NCBI GenBank assembly: GCA_000004985.1
Contig: GG738845.1
Length of the DNA stretch: 64,000 bases
Origin: Naegleria gruberi
Lineage: Eukaryota
Direction: 5' to 3' (one strand)
Under the pieces are notes generated by a model. That model saw only the letters and a list, made by a program, of their open reading frames with translations. It was not told the DNA's origin and made no database searches. Shown here piece after piece: positions 30,501 to 53,275 of the stretch. Position numbers and translations under genes: made by a program. Position 1 is the first letter of the stretch, and every line of letters begins with the position of its first letter.

Positions 30501-32807
30501 GATTTTGGAATTTTCATTTCTTGAAGAATTTTCTTTACACCAGCTTTAGGAGTTCCATTCCAACGTGGCCATGTTGAATCTGAACAAAGTTTGTAACGAT
30601 CCAAGAATTTATCAAAGTCCATCTTGAAATAATAACCACTATTTCTAACGTGTACATTTTCAGTGATACCTAAATATTTAACTTGTTCCATGACAACTTC
30701 ATCAATAAATTCATTTGGTTTCTTCTCATGGTTTGGTTTGATACATTTTACAAAGTGATGATGTTTTCCTTTCATTTTACCAACAAATTTGAAAACATCT
30801 TCAGTAAATTGCATTGTTGTGGTTTTTTGCAATTTACCAAATTCAATTTTTTCATCTCTAGGGAAGATTTGTTGCATGAGACCTGATTGTGATTTTCTCA
30901 TAGCAAAAACTAAATCTTCAAACAGTGTATCCTTATTCATTGAAATCCATCCTTCAACGTCATATGTTACTTTACCAGCAAAATGTTTCAAATCAAATAT
31001 TAATCCTGCAAACTTGGATTTTTCATAGCAAGCCCATCCAGTTCCAAAATTAGTATTCAATTTTTGCATGTATCTTTCATCAGTACAATTTGGAAGGAGA
31101 GATTCTTCATCCAACAATTTGTAAATACCAAATGGTTTTCCTTCAATAATTTCAACTGTTTGATCAACATTTTTCAATGGAATTGGATTATATGGAATAC
31201 CCTCTCTTACATATTCATCTTGTTCAGCTTGTAACCATTTTTGCACATGTTGCTGAATCTTTTCATTTACAAAGTTAATGTTCAATTGTTCTAGAGTATT
31301 TTTTTCCTTTGTATGTTTTTCATAAATTTCAAAACCATAAATATCAAGAATGCCTATAGAATATTTTGCATCATCAGGTCTTTTTACAGCTGAATTGATA
31401 CGACGAATGAGCCATGAAAATAATCTTTCATAGATACCCTTTGCAAGTGCATCTCTATTGAATGAAGCCATTGTAGAATTTTGAACTGTTTTTGTTGCTT
31501 CCTTACCAACGTGAATAGTTCTATATAAAAGTGCCTCTCTGAGTGTATCAAATTCAACTTGGAATAAGAAAGCTGCTGTTCTCAATGTATCCTTATTATC
31601 AATTTCTGCTGTGTCTTTACCATTTACATTTAAATCCTTAAACTTGACATTACCCAAGTGTAGAATACCAGCACAAAGTCTGAAAATTTCCATTTGTTCT
31701 AAAACTGAAATACCAGCTTCAGTCATGCTTTGTCTAGTATTCTTAAATTCTAACTTGTCATTCATGCCGTTAATAGTTAAGGAACTAGATGAAGAATTTA
31801 AACCGTTTGCAGTTAAATAATTGAATTTTTTTGCTTCTTCCAATTTCAAATCCTTTTTCATTGATTCATCTGCACCGGCACACATTTGATAGAAAATGTG
31901 GAAATTTCTTTCACCTTTTCTTTGTGACACTACACGTGATTTTTCTAACAGTGATGTTGTAATGTGTGCTCCTTCTAATTGTCCTTTGAAATTGAAGAAT
32001 ATTTCCATATATTTACCAAAACGACTACTATTGTCGTTTCTCAATGTTTTAGCATTACCAAAAGCTTCTAATACTGGATTTGCTTCAATAAGAATACGTT
32101 TAATATTTTCTGTAATTAATCCAGAAATTGAAATGGCACTAATATATTCAAGTAGGATTTTACAACTTTCTGTTTTACCTGCACCACTAGTTGTTGTTAT
32201 TATGTTTGGTCAGAATGATGAATATTCAAAATATGTCCACACACAAATGTTGCAATAATGTGTTATCACAAAATTACTTACCTCTCACCAGAGACCACAA
32301 CAGTTTGTCCCTGACCGGTTTCCTTCATTTGTCTATAGGCATCCTCCGCGAGAGAATATAAGTGAGGACCAATTTCATAGGGTTGTTTGGCGTGATAGAA
32401 ACTTTATAAAGGTTGAATGTGAAAATATTAACAAGTTATACTTACGTCTTGACATGATTCTTATAATTCTTTGTTTTGGAATATGGATTGATAGCAATTA
32501 TTGTTGGACCAAGATAGGTATAAAATTGAGAAACTCCTCCATTGATATCTGGCTGTTTGTTACTATATCTGTTTTTGAGTATTCGTGTGACTGTCTGATC
32601 AGTTGGTTCTTTTATGAGTGATAAATCATCGAGTGTATCCGATTCAAAATTACGTTTATAAAGTTGATATAAAGCAAATTCAGAAGTTTCATTAGTTCCA
32701 TCAACATCGGCTGGGTTTACATTATTCACAACTTCTACCTCAGCCTCCGCTGCTTCTTTTAGTTGGGTTGACGAAGAGTTTGCGTTCACTCCACGAGGAC
32801 TCAACAT
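27509..32807 (-). CDS. Myosin heavy chain, class I-like, with four tandem TH1 tail domains (about 1719 aa). Three exons: 32446..32807, 32282..32401 and 27509..32186.
   Basis: The motor domain has YTYLGPTIIAINPY, GESGAGKTE (split by a 95-nt intron), NDNSSRFGKYMEI and LDIYGFEIYEK. There is one IQ motif (IQRNFRKYKARQK). The tail carries four repeats of the Myosin_TH1 pattern, for example LRRKDSLLKWYLGDYLHVAS...LVQKINKRYLVQDRKLLVTDQAVYNLD...DGFFILKVPGEYDYIF. The introns are GTAAGT...TATAAAG (44 nt) and GTAAGT...CAACTAG (95 nt). Confidence 0.85.
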
Positions 32808-32927: not shown

Positions 32928-35654
32928 TTACATTCTCGTATTAAACCTTTCACTAATTTCAGTCAGGAACTGGTCAATCTTCTTAATGGCTGCAGATGCA
33001 GAAGGATCTTCGATAATGTTAATTTGTCCTTCAGCTCCTTGTGGTATCTTTAACACTTCCTTTTGTCCTCTCACCATTCTCAGCTTTGGATTGATTCTAA
33101 TCAATTCAGCACCAGAATTTTGCTTTAAAACAGTGTCTGACATTGTTCTAAGTTTTTGTTCTGCTCCTATTTCTAAAATACATAATGACCTTCCTTCCTC
33201 CTGGATTGCCTTTTTGATTTTAGTGGTCCAAGTTCTAAATGGGATCATTGATGTTTTTATCCATTGCTCATCAGTAGCGTTCATCTTTGCTCTTGGTCTT
33301 GCAACTCCTCTACAGCTCTCACAGAAAATTCTGTTAATAACTGGTTGTTTCTTTGGATTGTAGAGGTCGATATCCTCTTCAGATTTTACTTTTGAGTTCA
33401 GCAGGTCAGAATACTGCATGGCCTTCTTATTGAATGGATCTTCATAAGGACTCGATGCAAGAGCTGACTTGGGAGTATTAAAAACTGTTGGCGTGGTTAC
33501 TGAAGGAGTGGGATTGGTTGATGAACTAGCAGAAAAGAATGAAGCAGTTTTTCGATCATCCTTAATCTCTGGTTGATGAACAGGTATGGTTGGATTGGCT
33601 GTTGAAAAATCACTGATTGGCATGTCAACAAAAACTGTACCAAGTTTTACACCTTGATCACCTTCTTGGATTGTTCTAAGTTTTAGAGAGTGGACACTAT
33701 CTCTTGTTTTGAGGGAGAAGTCTAACATTCGAACAGAAGCAACCGAAATGTCAGGTAGCTGGCTGTGAGGTCTTCTTAATGATCCCTCTGTTCTTGGTCG
33801 TTGCGCCAAGTTTGACTTCTTGACTGGTGTTCCCAATAAAAACCTCATATTGTATTCTCCTACAAGTTGCCAAGGTTTTTCTTCAACCCTCGTAATCAAT
33901 GTGTTTTTCCGCAGTAATGGTTGAACTACAACACTAACCTTACCTCTAACTGGCATATTTTTCAATACCTTATTTGATAGAGTGTCTTGAGCATTAATGA
34001 TAACCGAGTCAACAAAAATACCATCCTCTTCTCTCTTTCTTCTAATTGTTGGAGAGACTTGACTAGTGAAGGAAATAACGGGAAAAGGCTCATCTATTGT
34101 ATCTTCTAAATTATAAATTTGGACTGATATGATAAATTTTACATTGGTTGAGCCAGCCACCAAAGTAAAATCTTTTGGAATAATTGGAACAGGATTCTTT
34201 CGAAATTCTTGAATATCTCTTTCTGTAACTATATCATCCGAATTATGAATATCTGTGTAGAATTGGTGATAATGAATCATTGGATCAATAATTGTAACCT
34301 CCATGTACCCTTCCTCTGAAGGGTCAATTTCACCATTAACAGCAAATGAATGCAACGTTACATGAACGTCTTCTGAAAACTCTTGGAATCTAGATTCATC
34401 TCCACTCTTGTTCTCTATCAATAATTTAAGGTTATTATTTACATTATGCAAGTGAATTCCATTATTATGTATGTCAGTGTTATATTCTTCATTATTCTCG
34501 TCTTCTGTATTAATTAAATTATATCTCTGTAAAACAGCATCTCTCCTTTCGATTAAGCTCCTGCTATTCAAACCAGATTTAATTCCTTCTGAAGTTTGTT
34601 CTGCTATCTTTCCAATATCTGCCAGTGACCCTAAAACATAATTATTCTTCCCATATAGAGACGATACTCTTCTTGAGGCAGATCCTGGTCTTTGATAATT
34701 TTCTGGATTTTTAAACTTTTCTGGAACATCTTTGTTAGAAAAGAATTGGTAGAATGCTCCTCTTTTTTCCCCTATTTGTGTAGGTATCAACTTGTCTGAG
34801 TTTCCCTTATGGAAAACAGCTCCAGAGATTGGAGTATCCATGTAGAGCTTTTTTTTGAAATAATCTGTTTTTCCAGTAGCAGAATAAAAATTAAAATCTT
34901 CTTCAGATACCGAAGTAAAAAGTGAGTCAGAAAATCCATCTTCTCCTTTCTTTGTATGATGGTGTTTGTCTTGAAATTTTAAAGGTGGAGCTCTTCCACT
35001 TTCCTGGTTGATTTCAAATCTAAAATCTTCCTTAACTCTAAAAAATGATTTACAACAAGGTATTGCACATTGCCAAGTCAATAAATCTCCTCTCGTTTCG
35101 TAATATTCACTTTCCTTAAATCCTTCCTTAACCAATTCTCCATCAATACTAGAAGTGACACAGAAAAATCTGCTTGGCATGTTCATAAATTTCTTCTTGT
35201 CTTCTTGAGGAGGATTTTCATCTTTCTTTTTACTCTTATCTTCGACTTGAAATCTGGGGTCATTTTGAAGAAAAAATACCTCTTTCCAGTGATGGATGGA
35301 TTTAATTGCATTACTTGATGATTGCTTTGAGCGTTGAGATCGGTTTAATGCTTGTCCCCAAAATCCATAAAACAGCTCGTCATCCTTTTTTAATACAACA
35401 GGATCACATAAATCTTCAAGTTTCAAACCAGATTCCGCATACATTTTGGCTCTTTTTTCAAATATTTCCTCTAATATTTTGTTTCCTGATGTTGAGCCTG
35501 ATTCTTCTCCCACAATTACCAGCAAGAAGTATGACAAGAAAATGGACTGTTGAACGATTTAGAAATCAAATGAAAATAAACCTACCTCTGCAGCCCTTTC
35601 AAAAGGATCTGCTTTCTTGTTCCTCTTGAATTTTGCCAATGCTTTGCTTGACAT
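32928..35654 (-). CDS. Sirtuin-fold (Sir2/DHS-like) protein with degenerate catalytic motifs and a roughly 550-aa insertion. Two exons: 35586..35654 and 32928..35546.
   Basis: The N-terminal part aligns with sirtuins. LLVIVGEESGSTSG matches VVLTGAGISTSCG. FLQNDPRFQ matches FFQSDPLPFY. VTSSIDGELVKEG..YYETRGDLLTWQC matches TQNIDTLERQAG..IIEAHGSFAHCHC. The C-terminal part matches too. FCESCRGVARP matches CDVCGELVKP. SLCILEIGAE..GAELIRINPK matches VIVVGTSL...NLE. The catalytic His is Arg, GIPDFR is lost, and NID is SID. Exon 1 (MSSKALAKFKRNKKADPFERAAE) is joined by a 39-nt GTAGGT...AACAG intron. The track start at 35537 is a TTG. Confidence 0.5.
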
Positions 35655-35798: not shown

Positions 35799-38336
35799 CT
35801 ACCTAAATGATTTTATTGATCTATTTTTGGAGGAAGAATGGTAAAGAGTGGATCTTTGGGATAACGAATTTGTTCTTATGGAGATTGAGCCATCCAACAA
35901 TGCACTCAATGAAGGAGCTTTGTTCATATTTCTTTGATTGACTTGGGACTTAATAGAAGGAGATGAAAAGAGTATCGAATCACCTGATACTTTCTTTACT
36001 TTACCTCCACTATCTCTAAGAATATCAGCCATTACTTTTGAAGTTTCTTTCATTTCAACTTCGTTATTTGCATGATGAAGTGCCAATAATTTTTTGCAGG
36101 AACAAATGTGTTGATAAGCAAGAGGGTAGTTTTTCATTGTTGCGTAAACTATCGAAATATTTCTCTGACTAATTATTGTGTCAATATGATTTGTTCCAAA
36201 CAATCTTTCCCGAATAGATTTTGCATGGGTATAGAGTCGAAGTGCTTCAGTAATTTTCAATTCTCTTATTTTAGAATCATCTATTGAGGTTGATTTTTGC
36301 TGTAATATTTCTCTTACAAGTTTTTCATCCTTTTGATTATTTAAAAACGAAGTTAAATAGAGATGACCAAGGTTTGTATAAATAACAGCTGTAGCTTCGT
36401 GATCAAAGCCAAATGAGCTCTCAAAGATTGCTTTACATTTTTGATACTTTTCAAATGCTTCGATAATTTTACCTTGTTGTCTTAAAATATTTCCAATATT
36501 ATTTAAAACTGTGCCAGTAGAAGGGTGGTTATCTCCATAATACTGTTGTTTGTGTTTCAATACTCTGTAAAGCAGATCCATTGCTTCGTCTCCTTTCCCA
36601 AAATTAAGTAAAAGAGAGGATATATTTTCGAAAACAAGTATTGTTTCCGTGTGAGTATCTCCATAATGTTTCACATATATCTCCTTCGCCTTATTGTAAA
36701 ATGATAAAGCCTCCTCAAATTTTCCCATTTCCTGTCTCAGATTTCCTATGTACAAATAACCCACAGCTGTTTCAATATGGTCCTTACCGAATTCTATTTC
36801 TCTAAGCATGATTCCATGGTATAAATATTCATCTGCTTTTTCAAACTCTTGCATTGTAATATATAGGCTCCCTATCATTAGATAACAAGAAACTGTTGAC
36901 GAATGCCTTTCTCCAAGAATTCTTTCTCTTATGTTGAGAGCCTTTTCATAGAGTATTATCGCTTCCTCTGTCTGTTTCAAGCTTTTGAGACAAGTTGCCA
37001 AGTTCACCAAACTAGTTGCATAATCAGGATGGTCAATAAGAGAATTGCTTTCCAAAATACCTTCTCCCAGTCTATAATATTGGTAGGCCTTGTGATAATC
37101 TGCAACGTATAGAAATACATTTCCAATGTTATTGTAAACAGTGGCTGTTTCTAAATGATCCCTACCAAATATTTTCTCTCGAATTTCTAAAGCCTTACAA
37201 AGGCATTCCATAGAGTTTTCAAAAGATCCAACAAGACTATACACCACTCCAAGTTGTGTATAAGCAGTTGCGATCTCGTTCGTATTTACATGGTAATATT
37301 TTTGCTTTTCTAAAAGATGTTTTCTATAATACTCTATCGAGTGTTTGTACTTTCCTTGCAATTTCATTAGATAACCCAAATCATTGTAAATTTGTATTGA
37401 AAACAAGGCTAGAACTCTATTATTGTGCTTTGATTTGAATAAACCATCAACAATCTTCTTGGCCTCCAATAGGTACAACTTTGCTTGTTTGAATTTTGCA
37501 AGATGAGTCAATGATTCTCCCAAAAGAATAAAAATATAAATTAAATCCTCATTGAAACTACCTAAATGTTTCAATATCATTTGTTTGCATTCCAAAGCTT
37601 TTTCAACTGCATTCTCCAAAAATCCAGAATGAAGTAGCTCACAGGCAATTACCTTAGTTTGCTGTATCTCTCCCTTATCTATTGAGTTTGAAGGTGATAT
37701 GTTCTTTTTTAAAGACCTCTCATTTTGGAAGTTTTCTTTTACTCCGTTGAAAATAAAAGTGGTCTCTTTGAAGGGCGATAGGGCAGTGGATGGAGAAAAA
37801 TGGTTGGGAGAAGTTATCAAATTTTCACAAATCGAAATTGAAGTTGCCTTACTTAGTGGAGGAGGTGAGATGGACACTGTGATTGGCTTATCCTCAGTAA
37901 ATCCTTGCAAGAAGGGTGTATGGCCATTGCTGGGTGTATGTTCTTCGGAACTGATATGTTTCTTGTATTTCTCTACATCATCAGATAGATGTTTTCTGAA
38001 TGGTGTTGGAGTTTGTAAAGGAGGATAGATGTTCTTTCCGCAAGTTATTGGAGAGTTGTTGATTGTAAAGGGTGTGATGGGTTGTGGGGAAGACGGATTT
38101 TCTAATTCATTGTATGAGATATGAATAAAATTTGGATCACTTTCTTGTTGAATTTGTTTTACCCTTAATGCCCATGCCTCCTCTAATGATGTGTTTTGTC
38201 CTATATTTAGTGGTTGAGGGTGTGATTGTTTGGTTGATGAAAATATGTTGAAGGGGGAGAGGTTGTTGTTGAGATCCTTCTTTGGAGTTATTACTGGACG
38301 AGAGGGTGATAGAAAATTGGCATTCAAAATATTCAT
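35799..38336 (-). CDS. TPR-repeat protein (kinesin-light-chain-type TPR_12 repeats) with an S/P-rich N-terminal region
   Basis: There are multiple 42-aa KLC-like TPR units (ALNIRERILGERHSSTVSCYLMIGSLYITMQEFEKADEYLYHGIMLREIEFGKDHIETAVGYLYIGNL, and others). The ATG at 38336 was verified. Confidence 0.6.
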   Translation of the reverse strand: MNILNANFLSPSRPVITPKKDLNNNLSPFNIFSSTKQSHPQPLNIGQNTSLEEAWALRVKQIQQESDPNFIHISYNELENPSSPQPITPFTINNSPITCGKNIYPPLQTPTPFRKHLSDDVEKYKKHISSEEHTPSNGHTPFLQGFTEDKPITVSISPPPLSKATSISICENLITSPNHFSPSTALSPFKETTFIFNGVKENFQNERSLKKNISPSNSIDKGEIQQTKVIACELLHSGFLENAVEKALECKQMILKHLGSFNEDLIYIFILLGESLTHLAKFKQAKLYLLEAKKIVDGLFKSKHNNRVLALFSIQIYNDLGYLMKLQGKYKHSIEYYRKHLLEKQKYYHVNTNEIATAYTQLGVVYSLVGSFENSMECLCKALEIREKIFGRDHLETATVYNNIGNVFLYVADYHKAYQYYRLGEGILESNSLIDHPDYATSLVNLATCLKSLKQTEEAIILYEKALNIRERILGERHSSTVSCYLMIGSLYITMQEFEKADEYLYHGIMLREIEFGKDHIETAVGYLYIGNLRQEMGKFEEALSFYNKAKEIYVKHYGDTHTETILVFENISSLLLNFGKGDEAMDLLYRVLKHKQQYYGDNHPSTGTVLNNIGNILRQQGKIIEAFEKYQKCKAIFESSFGFDHEATAVIYTNLGHLYLTSFLNNQKDEKLVREILQQKSTSIDDSKIRELKITEALRLYTHAKSIRERLFGTNHIDTIISQRNISIVYATMKNYPLAYQHICSCKKLLALHHANNEVEMKETSKVMADILRDSGGKVKKVSGDSILFSSPSIKSQVNQRNMNKAPSLSALLDGSISIRTNSLSQRSTLYHSSSKNRSIKSFR

Positions 38337-38450: not shown

Positions 38451-38467
38451 TTGGCGCCAAGAAATTT
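38451..38467. promoter_or_regulatory. E2F-like palindromic element TTGGCGCCAAGAAATTT in the divergent TPR/DRC2 promoter, 22-38 nt upstream of the DRC2 ATG
   Basis: The TTGGCGCCAA palindrome amounts to two overlapping E2F half-sites. Confidence 0.4.
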
Positions 38468-52382: not shown

Positions 52383-52398
52383 ATTTGGCGCCAAATTT
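52381..52398. promoter_or_regulatory. E2F-like perfect palindrome AAATTTGGCGCCAAATTT, overlapping the INTS3 stop and 53-70 nt upstream of the Borealin-like ATG
   Basis: The 18-bp perfect palindrome centres on GGCGCC. It amounts to two overlapping TTTGGCGC E2F half-sites. Confidence 0.45.
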
Positions 52399-52450: not shown

Positions 52451-53275
52451 ATGAATCAAGACTCGTTGTTCACTCAGTACGTTAGGAGAAAAAACCGAGT
52501 GAGAAGGAAGAAGGCCAGAACTCCAAAACGATTTGCCACTTTATTGCAACAACAACAAATTGAAGAGGTCATAGTTCCATCCTCATCAACAGAGCATTTC
52601 GATGAGGACGAAATAAACTGCCCAACAGAAAGTATCGGAACAAAAAAAACTTCATTCAAAGAAGAAGATATCGAAATAGAAATACCTAGATCTGAAGATT
52701 ATGAATCTGCCAAGGAATCAGATGCCGAATTCAAAGATCCACGAACACCACTCAACCAACTCTTGAGAAAGAGGCATTTTGATTCGTGTGACAAGGAAAA
52801 CTTTGTCCTCTCTACCCGTAAAATTAAATCTATGCTAATGGACGAGGAACAACTCAATTTCCTTCTCTATGCATATGATAAGGAGATTGATATCAAAGTG
52901 AATACCGTTAAGTCCTACACAGAGATCAATTGTAAAATGTTTGAAATGAGGCTAAATATGATTTTAGCTCGTCTTCCTGATTCTGTGAAGAATATGACTG
53001 TTGGAGAATTCCAAGAAAAGTATAACGAAGATGTAAACACCCTCCTCAAGACCAGAGCTGAAGAAAACATTCAAGAGCTAGAAGAGAAATTTGCTAAACT
53101 TAAGAGTTCCGCATCCTCTCACAAGACTCCATCTGTAAATAGGTACCGTGCTTCAGCAATGTTTCCACCTCAATCTAATCTTCAAACACCTCAACACCAA
53201 CAAAAGAAGAAGAAGACAACTAACTTTCTCAATACTCCACTCAACCATAGCAGATTGCAAGCAAATAAAATGTAA
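52451..53275 (+). CDS. Borealin/Nbl1-like protein (chromosomal passenger complex subunit), tentative
   Basis: The central region (KIKSMLMDEEQLNFLLYAYDKEIDIKVNTVKSY...EMRLNMILARLPDSVKNMTVGEF) resembles the Borealin N-terminal domain ([21 protein letters not shown]...EILRLPKALREMNWLDYF). A KEN box (DKENFVL) is present. The product is basic and S/T-rich. The assignment rests on a short motif only. Confidence 0.4.
   Translation: MNQDSLFTQYVRRKNRVRRKKARTPKRFATLLQQQQIEEVIVPSSSTEHFDEDEINCPTESIGTKKTSFKEEDIEIEIPRSEDYESAKESDAEFKDPRTPLNQLLRKRHFDSCDKENFVLSTRKIKSMLMDEEQLNFLLYAYDKEIDIKVNTVKSYTEINCKMFEMRLNMILARLPDSVKNMTVGEFQEKYNEDVNTLLKTRAEENIQELEEKFAKLKSSASSHKTPSVNRYRASAMFPPQSNLQTPQHQQKKKKTTNFLNTPLNHSRLQANKM

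Follow-up and report, generated by a model that had tools for sequence, protein, structure and literature searches.

The window analyzed here, a stretch of 64,000 nucleotides (nt) of Naegleria gruberi DNA (assembly GCA_000004985.1, contig GG738845.1), is AT rich, with a GC content of ~33%. We focused on a gene of this window that is split by a single intron (Table 1). The N- and C-terminal parts of its product have the fold of the Sir2 (sirtuin) superfamily, the regions corresponding to the binding site for nicotinamide adenine dinucleotide (NAD) and to the catalytic His are degenerate, and a large insertion is nested in the zinc module. We consider it likely that the protein as a whole is a sirtuin-fold pseudoenzyme, with lower confidence in the last step of this proposal, namely, a scaffold or binding role.

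Table 1. Positions in the window of the sirtuin-fold gene, its motifs, and its upstream element
Feature	Positions	Strand	Residues	Description
Whole gene	32928-35654	minus	1-895	Two exons, one intron; product of 895 residues
Exon 1	35586-35654	minus		ATG at 35654; 23 codons, MSSKALAKFKRNKKADPFERAAE
Intron	35547-35585	minus		39 nt, phase 0, GTAGGT...AACAG (GT..AG)
Exon 2	32928-35546	minus		872 codons and stop; one continuous open reading frame (ORF)
N-terminal sirtuin part	34971-35546	minus	24-215	Rossmann strands, helical module, first zinc hairpin, FRFEINQESGRAPPLKF segment
GEESG	35496-35510	minus	36-40	Degenerate counterpart of the GAGxS NAD-binding loop
TSSID	35142-35156	minus	154-158	Counterpart of TQNID/TSNVD; Asn replaced by Ser, Asp kept
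ETRG	35088-35099	minus		Arg175 in place of the catalytic His of the HG motif
First predicted zinc-ligand pair	35052-35069	minus		C183-AIP-C187 (then C188), within the WQC motif (WQCAIPC)
Insertion	33354-34970	minus	216-754	539 residues, nested in the zinc module between its Cys pairs
Folded part of the insertion	33612-34394	minus	~408-668 (exon-2 residues ~385-645)	Predicted alpha/beta region, then nine-stranded beta-sandwich (residues ~490-670)
HVTLH	34350-34364	minus	418-422	H418-x3-H422; invariant HxxxH of the insertion, in a helix predicted with confidence
C-terminal sirtuin part	32928-33353	minus	755-895 and stop	Includes LEIGAE (ExGxG counterpart) and LIRINPK
Second predicted zinc-ligand pair	33312-33323	minus		C765-ES-C768, then RGVARP
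Palindrome TTGGCGCCAA	35729-35738	none		E2F-like; ~79 nt upstream of the ATG

When the frame of exon 1 is read through the 39-nt stretch, a stop codon is met, and removal of this stretch as an intron joins exon 1 to the frame of exon 2. The NCBI entry for N. gruberi ('predicted protein [Naegleria gruberi]') is 100% identical to the long ORF; it is 838 residues long, begins with MYAESG, and lacks exon 1 and the intron as well as the initial 34 codons of exon 2, including the degenerate GAG loop. The proteins of Naegleria lovaniensis and Naegleria fowleri start with MSKALAKFKRNKKADPYEKAAESIFLSYF, an N terminus in common with that of the 895-residue model, and a Percolomonas transcript starts in the same manner (MSKKAPKLRRNKKADEIERAAEEITDSFYLLVIVGEAFSDISG). 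In the N. fowleri genome, residues 1 to 22 (..KAAE) are encoded by an exon of their own, after which come GTAAGT and an intron of ~196 nt. Both Naegleria introns are thus located at the same codon, after ..AAE, showing that the position is conserved but the length is not. As the N termini of the congeners, the Percolomonas transcript, and the N. fowleri intron agree, the 895-residue model of the preliminary description is better than the public one, which is N-terminally truncated and is corrected here. The short 5′ exon and the 39-nt intron of that description were both retained. The Willaertia model (P0005), which is devoid of the LLVIVGEE segment, and an ENA model (P0004), truncated like the public N. 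gruberi one, are probably misannotated as well.

Submitted as a single sequence to a Pfam search, the N. gruberi protein matched no family. The sole match in a phmmer search of PDB, with an E value of 1.1, was rejected as chance. In contrast with single-sequence searches, a profile of six orthologs matched the SirTM protein of Streptococcus pyogenes (5A3A) with an E value of 8.5e-4, over a region spanning TSNIDgEF..ElYEtRGd..WQC..C. The match improved to 2.3e-4 when the insertion was removed, and a Discoba-wide profile of 22 sequences gave 5A3A at 1.3e-5, with SIRT6 next. An exhaustive HMMER search of 1.84 billion representatives retrieved 966 relatives at E values of ≤1e-3, including 61 at ≤1e-30. 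Most of them are 290 to 450 residues long and match the query in two distinct stretches, one in its N-terminal and one in its C-terminal part. Their motifs are GAGFSxDSGLxVY, TSNVD, EIHG...WQC, CxxCGxxARPxxLMFGD, and LEIGCG, and those that possess the catalytic His score above the gathering threshold of the Pfam SIR2 family (PF02146; 28 to 54 bits for a cutoff of 24). A profile of these short relatives matched SirTM (5a3a) at 1e-13 and Mfs1 (8rsn) at 5.6e-13 in PDB; SIRT5, at ~4e-9, Sir2Af, and Hst2 were matched in the range of 1e-9 to 1e-7. When the Naegleria-type core, with the insertion excised, was compared with the His-bearing family using hhalign, the two aligned over 317 colinear columns with a probability of 100 and an E value of 1.3e-56. 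These matches establish the sirtuin fold postulated in the preliminary description, the resemblance being much greater than chance would give. The protein has the Rossmann-fold large domain and the small helical/zinc domain that characterize the Sir2 superfamily; it is a member of this superfamily by fold and profile homology, with degenerate catalytic motifs. When the 22-sequence alignment was used in a word-indexed search, nothing but Naegleria and Willaertia was recovered. The N. fowleri ortholog is named 'Deacetylase sirtuin-type domain-containing protein' in UniRef, indicating that the domain relationship was already within reach of automatic annotation.

The insertion had been described as ~550 residues that replace the zinc ribbon. 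Its size was nearly right, but the zinc ribbon is not replaced. Cys183, Cys187, Cys765, and Cys768 are predicted zinc ligands and are invariant in all 22 to 28 Discoba sequences, and all four are found in 38 of the 39 relatives devoid of the catalytic His in which both pairs are aligned. The segment that follows the first Cys pair, FRVKEDFRFEINQESGRAPPLKF, is also present in the short relatives, and the insertion begins after it. The spacing between the second and the third Cys residues is 578 residues in N. gruberi, compared with a median of 75 (range, 29 to 415) in His-bearing relatives. Because the four Cys residues are kept and the insert lies between the two pairs, we conclude that the zinc module is intact and carries the insert. 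Six His-bearing proteins with canonical motifs (P0020, P0025 from Aduncisulcus, P0035, P0052, P0103, and P0118) harbor other, seemingly unrelated inserts of 200 to 415 residues at the same place, some of them (e.g., those of P0020 and P0025) of low complexity. The variety of inserts found between the Cys pairs marks the loop that joins these pairs as a hot spot for insertions in the subfamily.

We then compared the catalytic and cofactor-binding positions. For this, 170 retrieved members of the family were aligned to a hidden Markov model of the His-bearing family, and 122 His-bearing relatives were compared with 44 non-His relatives, 35 of which belong to the clade that has the insertion. Arg175 of N. 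gruberi takes the place of the catalytic His, and 11 kinds of residues are found at this position in the 44 non-His proteins (R in 13; L in 9; N and C in 5 each; M in 3; Y, W, and Q in 2 each; K, V, and S in 1 each). Of 111 His-bearing relatives, 110 have the GAG motif. Among the alignable members of the insertion clade, its Ala is never found (0/10) and its second Gly is found once (1/10), the glycine-rich loop being GEE or GPx. The Asn and the Asp of the TSNVD motif are present in 121 and 122, respectively, of the 122 His-bearing proteins, and 108 of 113 have the Phe of FGD. In N. gruberi, the Asn position is occupied by Ser156, FGD reads N.TD, and ExGxG reads EIGAE.

In most respects, these alignments agree with the preliminary description, which had reported Arg at the His position, the GEESG, TSSID, and CESCRGVARP motifs, and a loss of deacylase chemistry. 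One of its points on these motifs required revision: the GIPDFR loop, said to be absent, has diverged instead, with SGNKILEEI in N. gruberi opposite SGLxVYxDI in the relatives. In the TSSID motif of N. gruberi, the Asn is missing and Asp158 is kept. TSSID in place of TSNID is found in N. gruberi alone among the heteroloboseans examined and, judging from the alignment, is a further, lineage-specific decay of the former ribose-binding Asn. The kinetoplastid members have neither the Asn nor the Asp.

The decay is selective. We defined a set of 49 positions, each conserved in ≥93% of the 122 His-bearing relatives, of which the N. gruberi protein retains 31. No more than two members of the insertion clade keep any one of the following: the Ala and the second Gly of the GAG loop, three cofactor-loop positions, Tyr57, the catalytic His, the FGD Phe, and the final Gly of ExGxG. 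Conversely, FxGFWG, N, W, the Gly of HG, WQC, F, both CxxC pairs, RP, M, D, W, ExG, and R are essentially always kept. This pattern is as expected if the fold has been maintained and the NAD site abandoned; the acquisition of a new catalytic residue would look otherwise. The protein is thus very probably CATALYTICALLY dead in the sense that it would not be a deacylase, and it probably does not use NAD as an enzyme of any kind. Once NAD chemistry becomes dispensable, the parts of the sirtuin fold that are kept appear to be the zinc module, the FYGFWG helix, and the WQC hairpin.

Several observations weigh against a complete loss of activity. SirTM, which has QG in place of HG, is a robust ADP-ribosyltransferase despite the missing His, showing that a His-less sirtuin can be active (PMC4518038). 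The heterolobosean members consistently have Arg or Lys at the His site, and most of them keep the Asn and the Asp of TSNID, such that lineage-specific residual activity could persist. Also retained are the first Gly of the glycine-rich loop and, in the cofactor loop, the SG. Since SirTM is also the closest solved structure and sequence, the N. gruberi protein might be a noncanonical enzyme of that type, for example, an ADP-ribosyltransferase or NADase that would act on NAD+ despite the missing His and position the ribose by means of Arg175 or other residues. We find this quite improbable. In SirTM the Gln at the His site is absolutely conserved (PMC4518038), whereas the same site is not conserved in the insertion clade, with residues that include L, M, V, and W; the glycines and the Phe listed above are lost, the kinetoplastid members have no Asn or Asp in the motif, and in N. 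gruberi the Asn is replaced by Ser. Given that SirTM is active, a missing His is by itself no proof of inactivity. The argument is carried by the variability of the site, which argues for a real loss of chemistry rather than a SirTM-like substitution, together with the lost NAD-binding glycines.

The comparison with class M sirtuins was extended to the features that define them. The N. gruberi protein shares with S. pyogenes SirTM (5A3A) and with Mfs1 of Fusarium (8RSN), a fungal macrodomain-SirTM fusion, the signature T(T/S)N(A/I)D ... xG ... WQC ... C, the absence of the catalytic His, and a zinc-binding small domain. It differs in that SirTM keeps GAGxS, where N. gruberi has GEE, and in the Arg at a variable His site, the Ser at the Asn position, and the insertion that splits the zinc module. 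Besides its Gln, SirTM has conserved Asn118 and Arg192 residues and is linked to a zinc-containing macrodomain (PMC4518038). Gln is found at the His site in only 2 of the 44 non-His relatives, and N. gruberi has RG; Ser156 is the equivalent of Asn118; and no macrodomain or other Pfam domain was detected in the N. gruberi protein or its orthologs, the flanking genes coding for a myosin and a tetratricopeptide repeat (TPR) protein. Membership in the SirTM class was thus rejected.

Compared with canonical sirtuins (Sir2Af1, Hst2, and SIRT1/2/5/6), the protein has lost the NAD-binding loop, the cofactor loop, the catalytic His, and FGE, and its zinc module, unlike theirs, carries a large nested insertion. 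With the short His-bearing protist sirtuins, such as P0016 of Flamella and P0017 of Rhizamoeba, it has in common FYGFWG..N, WQC, FRF, CxxC..ARP..M..D, ExG, and RIN; in contrast, the short proteins keep GAGFSxDSGLxVY, TSNVD, HG, FGD, and ExGxG, in addition to their short Cys-pair spacing. These short proteins are themselves uncharacterized, and our analysis brings to light a large SirTM-related subfamily of protist sirtuins that possess the catalytic His. A few short relatives devoid of a large insertion have also lost the His, independently (P0040, SG; P0066, YG; P0106, NG; P0125, QG), the QG of P0125 being SirTM-like.

Approximately 260 of the inserted residues are predicted to fold, and the remaining ~280 have predicted local distance difference test (pLDDT) scores below 50. 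The low scores extend over exon-2 residues 197 to 390 and 647 to 721, which are probably disordered according to the structure prediction but still hold short conserved motifs such as EEDFNFY and EKRGAYYQFF. The idea of a beta-rich insert thus stands for the beta-sandwich and does not extend to the whole segment, about half of which is predicted to be disordered and another part of which is alpha/beta. The inserted domain had been suggested to be possibly C2-like or a beta-sandwich. The nine predicted strands agree with a beta-sandwich, but its likeness to C2 is at best weak: there was no match of the insertion to Pfam C2 or to any other Pfam family, no sequence-profile match to C2 domains (those of cPLA2, synaptotagmin, PTEN, and auxilin), and the scores of the C2-domain comparison were near background for any beta-sandwich. 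A protocadherin match obtained with a 6-sequence profile (E value of 0.15) was gone with the 22-sequence profile and was rejected as noise.

H418, H422, D536, S561, and G586 of the insertion are invariant in the 22 to 28 sequences, and H642 is nearly so. It is conceivable that the insertion is the functional center of the protein, either with H418-x3-H422, D536, S561, and H642 as a metal-binding or catalytic site or with a C2-like, lipid-binding sandwich, the dead sirtuin being a mere carrier. Those residues are conserved among sequences that are otherwise 15 to 20% identical, and they are located in confidently predicted elements. Nevertheless, the HxxxH motif is not accompanied by the Glu of zincins, and with the lack of C2 or other Pfam matches, we regard this possibility as unlikely.

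Orthologs that keep the insertion, which the preliminary description proposed to look for in other protists, were found in four groups. Insertion-bearing, His-less proteins are present in Heterolobosea (three species of Naegleria, Willaertia, and Percolomonas), Euglenida (Euglena longa, Eutreptiella, and Ploeotia), Diplonemea (Diplonema papillatum, Lacrimia, Sulcionema, and Namystynia), and Kinetoplastea (Papus and Bodo saltans), and several of them are derived from transcriptomes. When independent profiles of the insertions alone were compared between Heterolobosea and Euglenozoa, they matched with a probability of 96 and an E value of 4.3e-9 over 137 columns of the beta-sandwich. As the insertion is homologous between these clades, it must have been acquired once, before Heterolobosea and Euglenozoa split. 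These data also bear on the possibility that the insertion is a gene-model artifact, i.e., an unspliced intron or the fusion of two genes. Apart from the unusual length of the protein, nothing points in that direction: the ORF is uninterrupted for 869 codons, the conserved insertion is present in transcript-derived orthologs of Percolomonas, E. longa, Ploeotia, and diplonemids, and it is homologous between clades. We thus give hardly any credence to an artifact.

The same design is therefore found across Discoba and probably represents an ancient, uncharacterized pseudoenzyme. Its conservation from Naegleria to euglenids, diplonemids, and bodonids implies a selectable role without the usual chemistry. 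A search initiated from a kinetoplastid-like member returned B. saltans but no Trypanosoma or Leishmania ortholog, suggesting that the trypanosomatid ortholog has been lost or is extremely diverged; consequently, there are no functional data to borrow from model trypanosomatids. Our searches of a literature collection yielded no paper on the insertion-bearing family or on any sirtuin pseudoenzyme, and catalytically dead sirtuins appear to be undescribed so far. What we report is an ancient, apparently undescribed family, a probable pseudoenzyme with a domain nested in its zinc module, rather than a new type of system.

We propose that the ancestor of the family belonged to the subfamily of short protist sirtuins (~300 to 450 residues) with the catalytic His, to which the class M ADP-ribosylating sirtuins (SirTM) are the closest among solved structures. 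Before the divergence of Heterolobosea and Euglenozoa, one paralog would have gained an insertion of ~500 residues between the two Cys pairs of its zinc module and would then have lost NAD-binding and catalytic residues. The Rossmann core, the helical module (FYGFWG..N), the WQC hairpin, the four zinc ligands, and the RP..M..D segment would have been retained. The preserved sirtuin body may serve as a rigid, noncatalytic binding platform whose zinc module exposes a new alpha/beta and beta-sandwich domain, along with long flexible linkers, for interaction with partners such as proteins or possibly membranes. The pseudo-deacylase scaffold of the preliminary description is thus supported as to the loss of chemistry and set aside as to the replacement of the zinc ribbon, and we infer a noncatalytic scaffold or binding role.

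Alternatively, by analogy, the dead paralog might pair with an active sirtuin of the same subfamily and regulate or localize it. In kinetoplastids, pseudoenzyme partners of deoxyhypusine synthase and of S-adenosylmethionine decarboxylase act as such prozymes. The large family of His-bearing, active-looking paralogs and the preservation of a dimer-capable Rossmann core would fit this possibility. However, the named His-bearing members come from Amoebozoa and a metamonad, and none could be demonstrated in N. gruberi or other Discoba, which makes a prozyme distinctly unlikely. An N-myristoylation consensus, MGxxx[STAGCN], opens 31 of the 117 His-bearing sequences with an initial Met (e.g., P0016, P0017, P0023, and P0026) and is seen in no member of the insertion clade, suggesting membrane targeting of the active-looking His-bearing subfamily. 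In a bolder and doubtful scenario, the dead sirtuin would carry an undescribed His/His/Asp(/His/Ser) domain, metal dependent or lipid binding, inserted >1 billion years ago by a rough estimate, or else would be the prozyme of active N-myristoylated paralogs.

The neighbors of the gene in N. gruberi are both on the minus strand. The downstream gene (27509-32807) has several exons and codes for an unconventional myosin whose long tail is made of several repeats of a unit of ~200 residues (RRKxSxxxxYxGDY...), resembling the tail homology 1 (TH1) tails of myosin I. The upstream gene (35799-38336) codes for an 845-residue protein with TPR repeats similar to those of kinesin light chains. Its end is only 144 nt away from the ATG of the sirtuin-fold gene, making the intergenic promoter region very compact. 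No synteny was found between the N. gruberi locus and that of the N. fowleri ortholog (VFQX01000072.1, 1-14983). The latter is surrounded by genes for an LSM protein, a C2-domain protein kinase, an enoyl-CoA hydratase/3-hydroxyacyl-CoA dehydrogenase, and an acetyltransferase.

The E2F-like element that had been placed ~75 nt upstream of the gene is present, at a slightly larger distance (Table 1). The TTGGCGCCAA 10-mer occurs three times in the window, compared with 0.03 occurrences expected by chance, and its other copies are at positions 38451-38460 and 52385-52394. All three copies are located 57 to 125 nt upstream of an ATG, i.e., those of the sirtuin-fold gene, of the TPR gene starting at 38336 on the minus strand, and of an ORF starting at 52451 on the plus strand. 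Judging from this arrangement, TTGGCGCCAA is probably a recurrent promoter-proximal element of N. gruberi with an E2F-like core.

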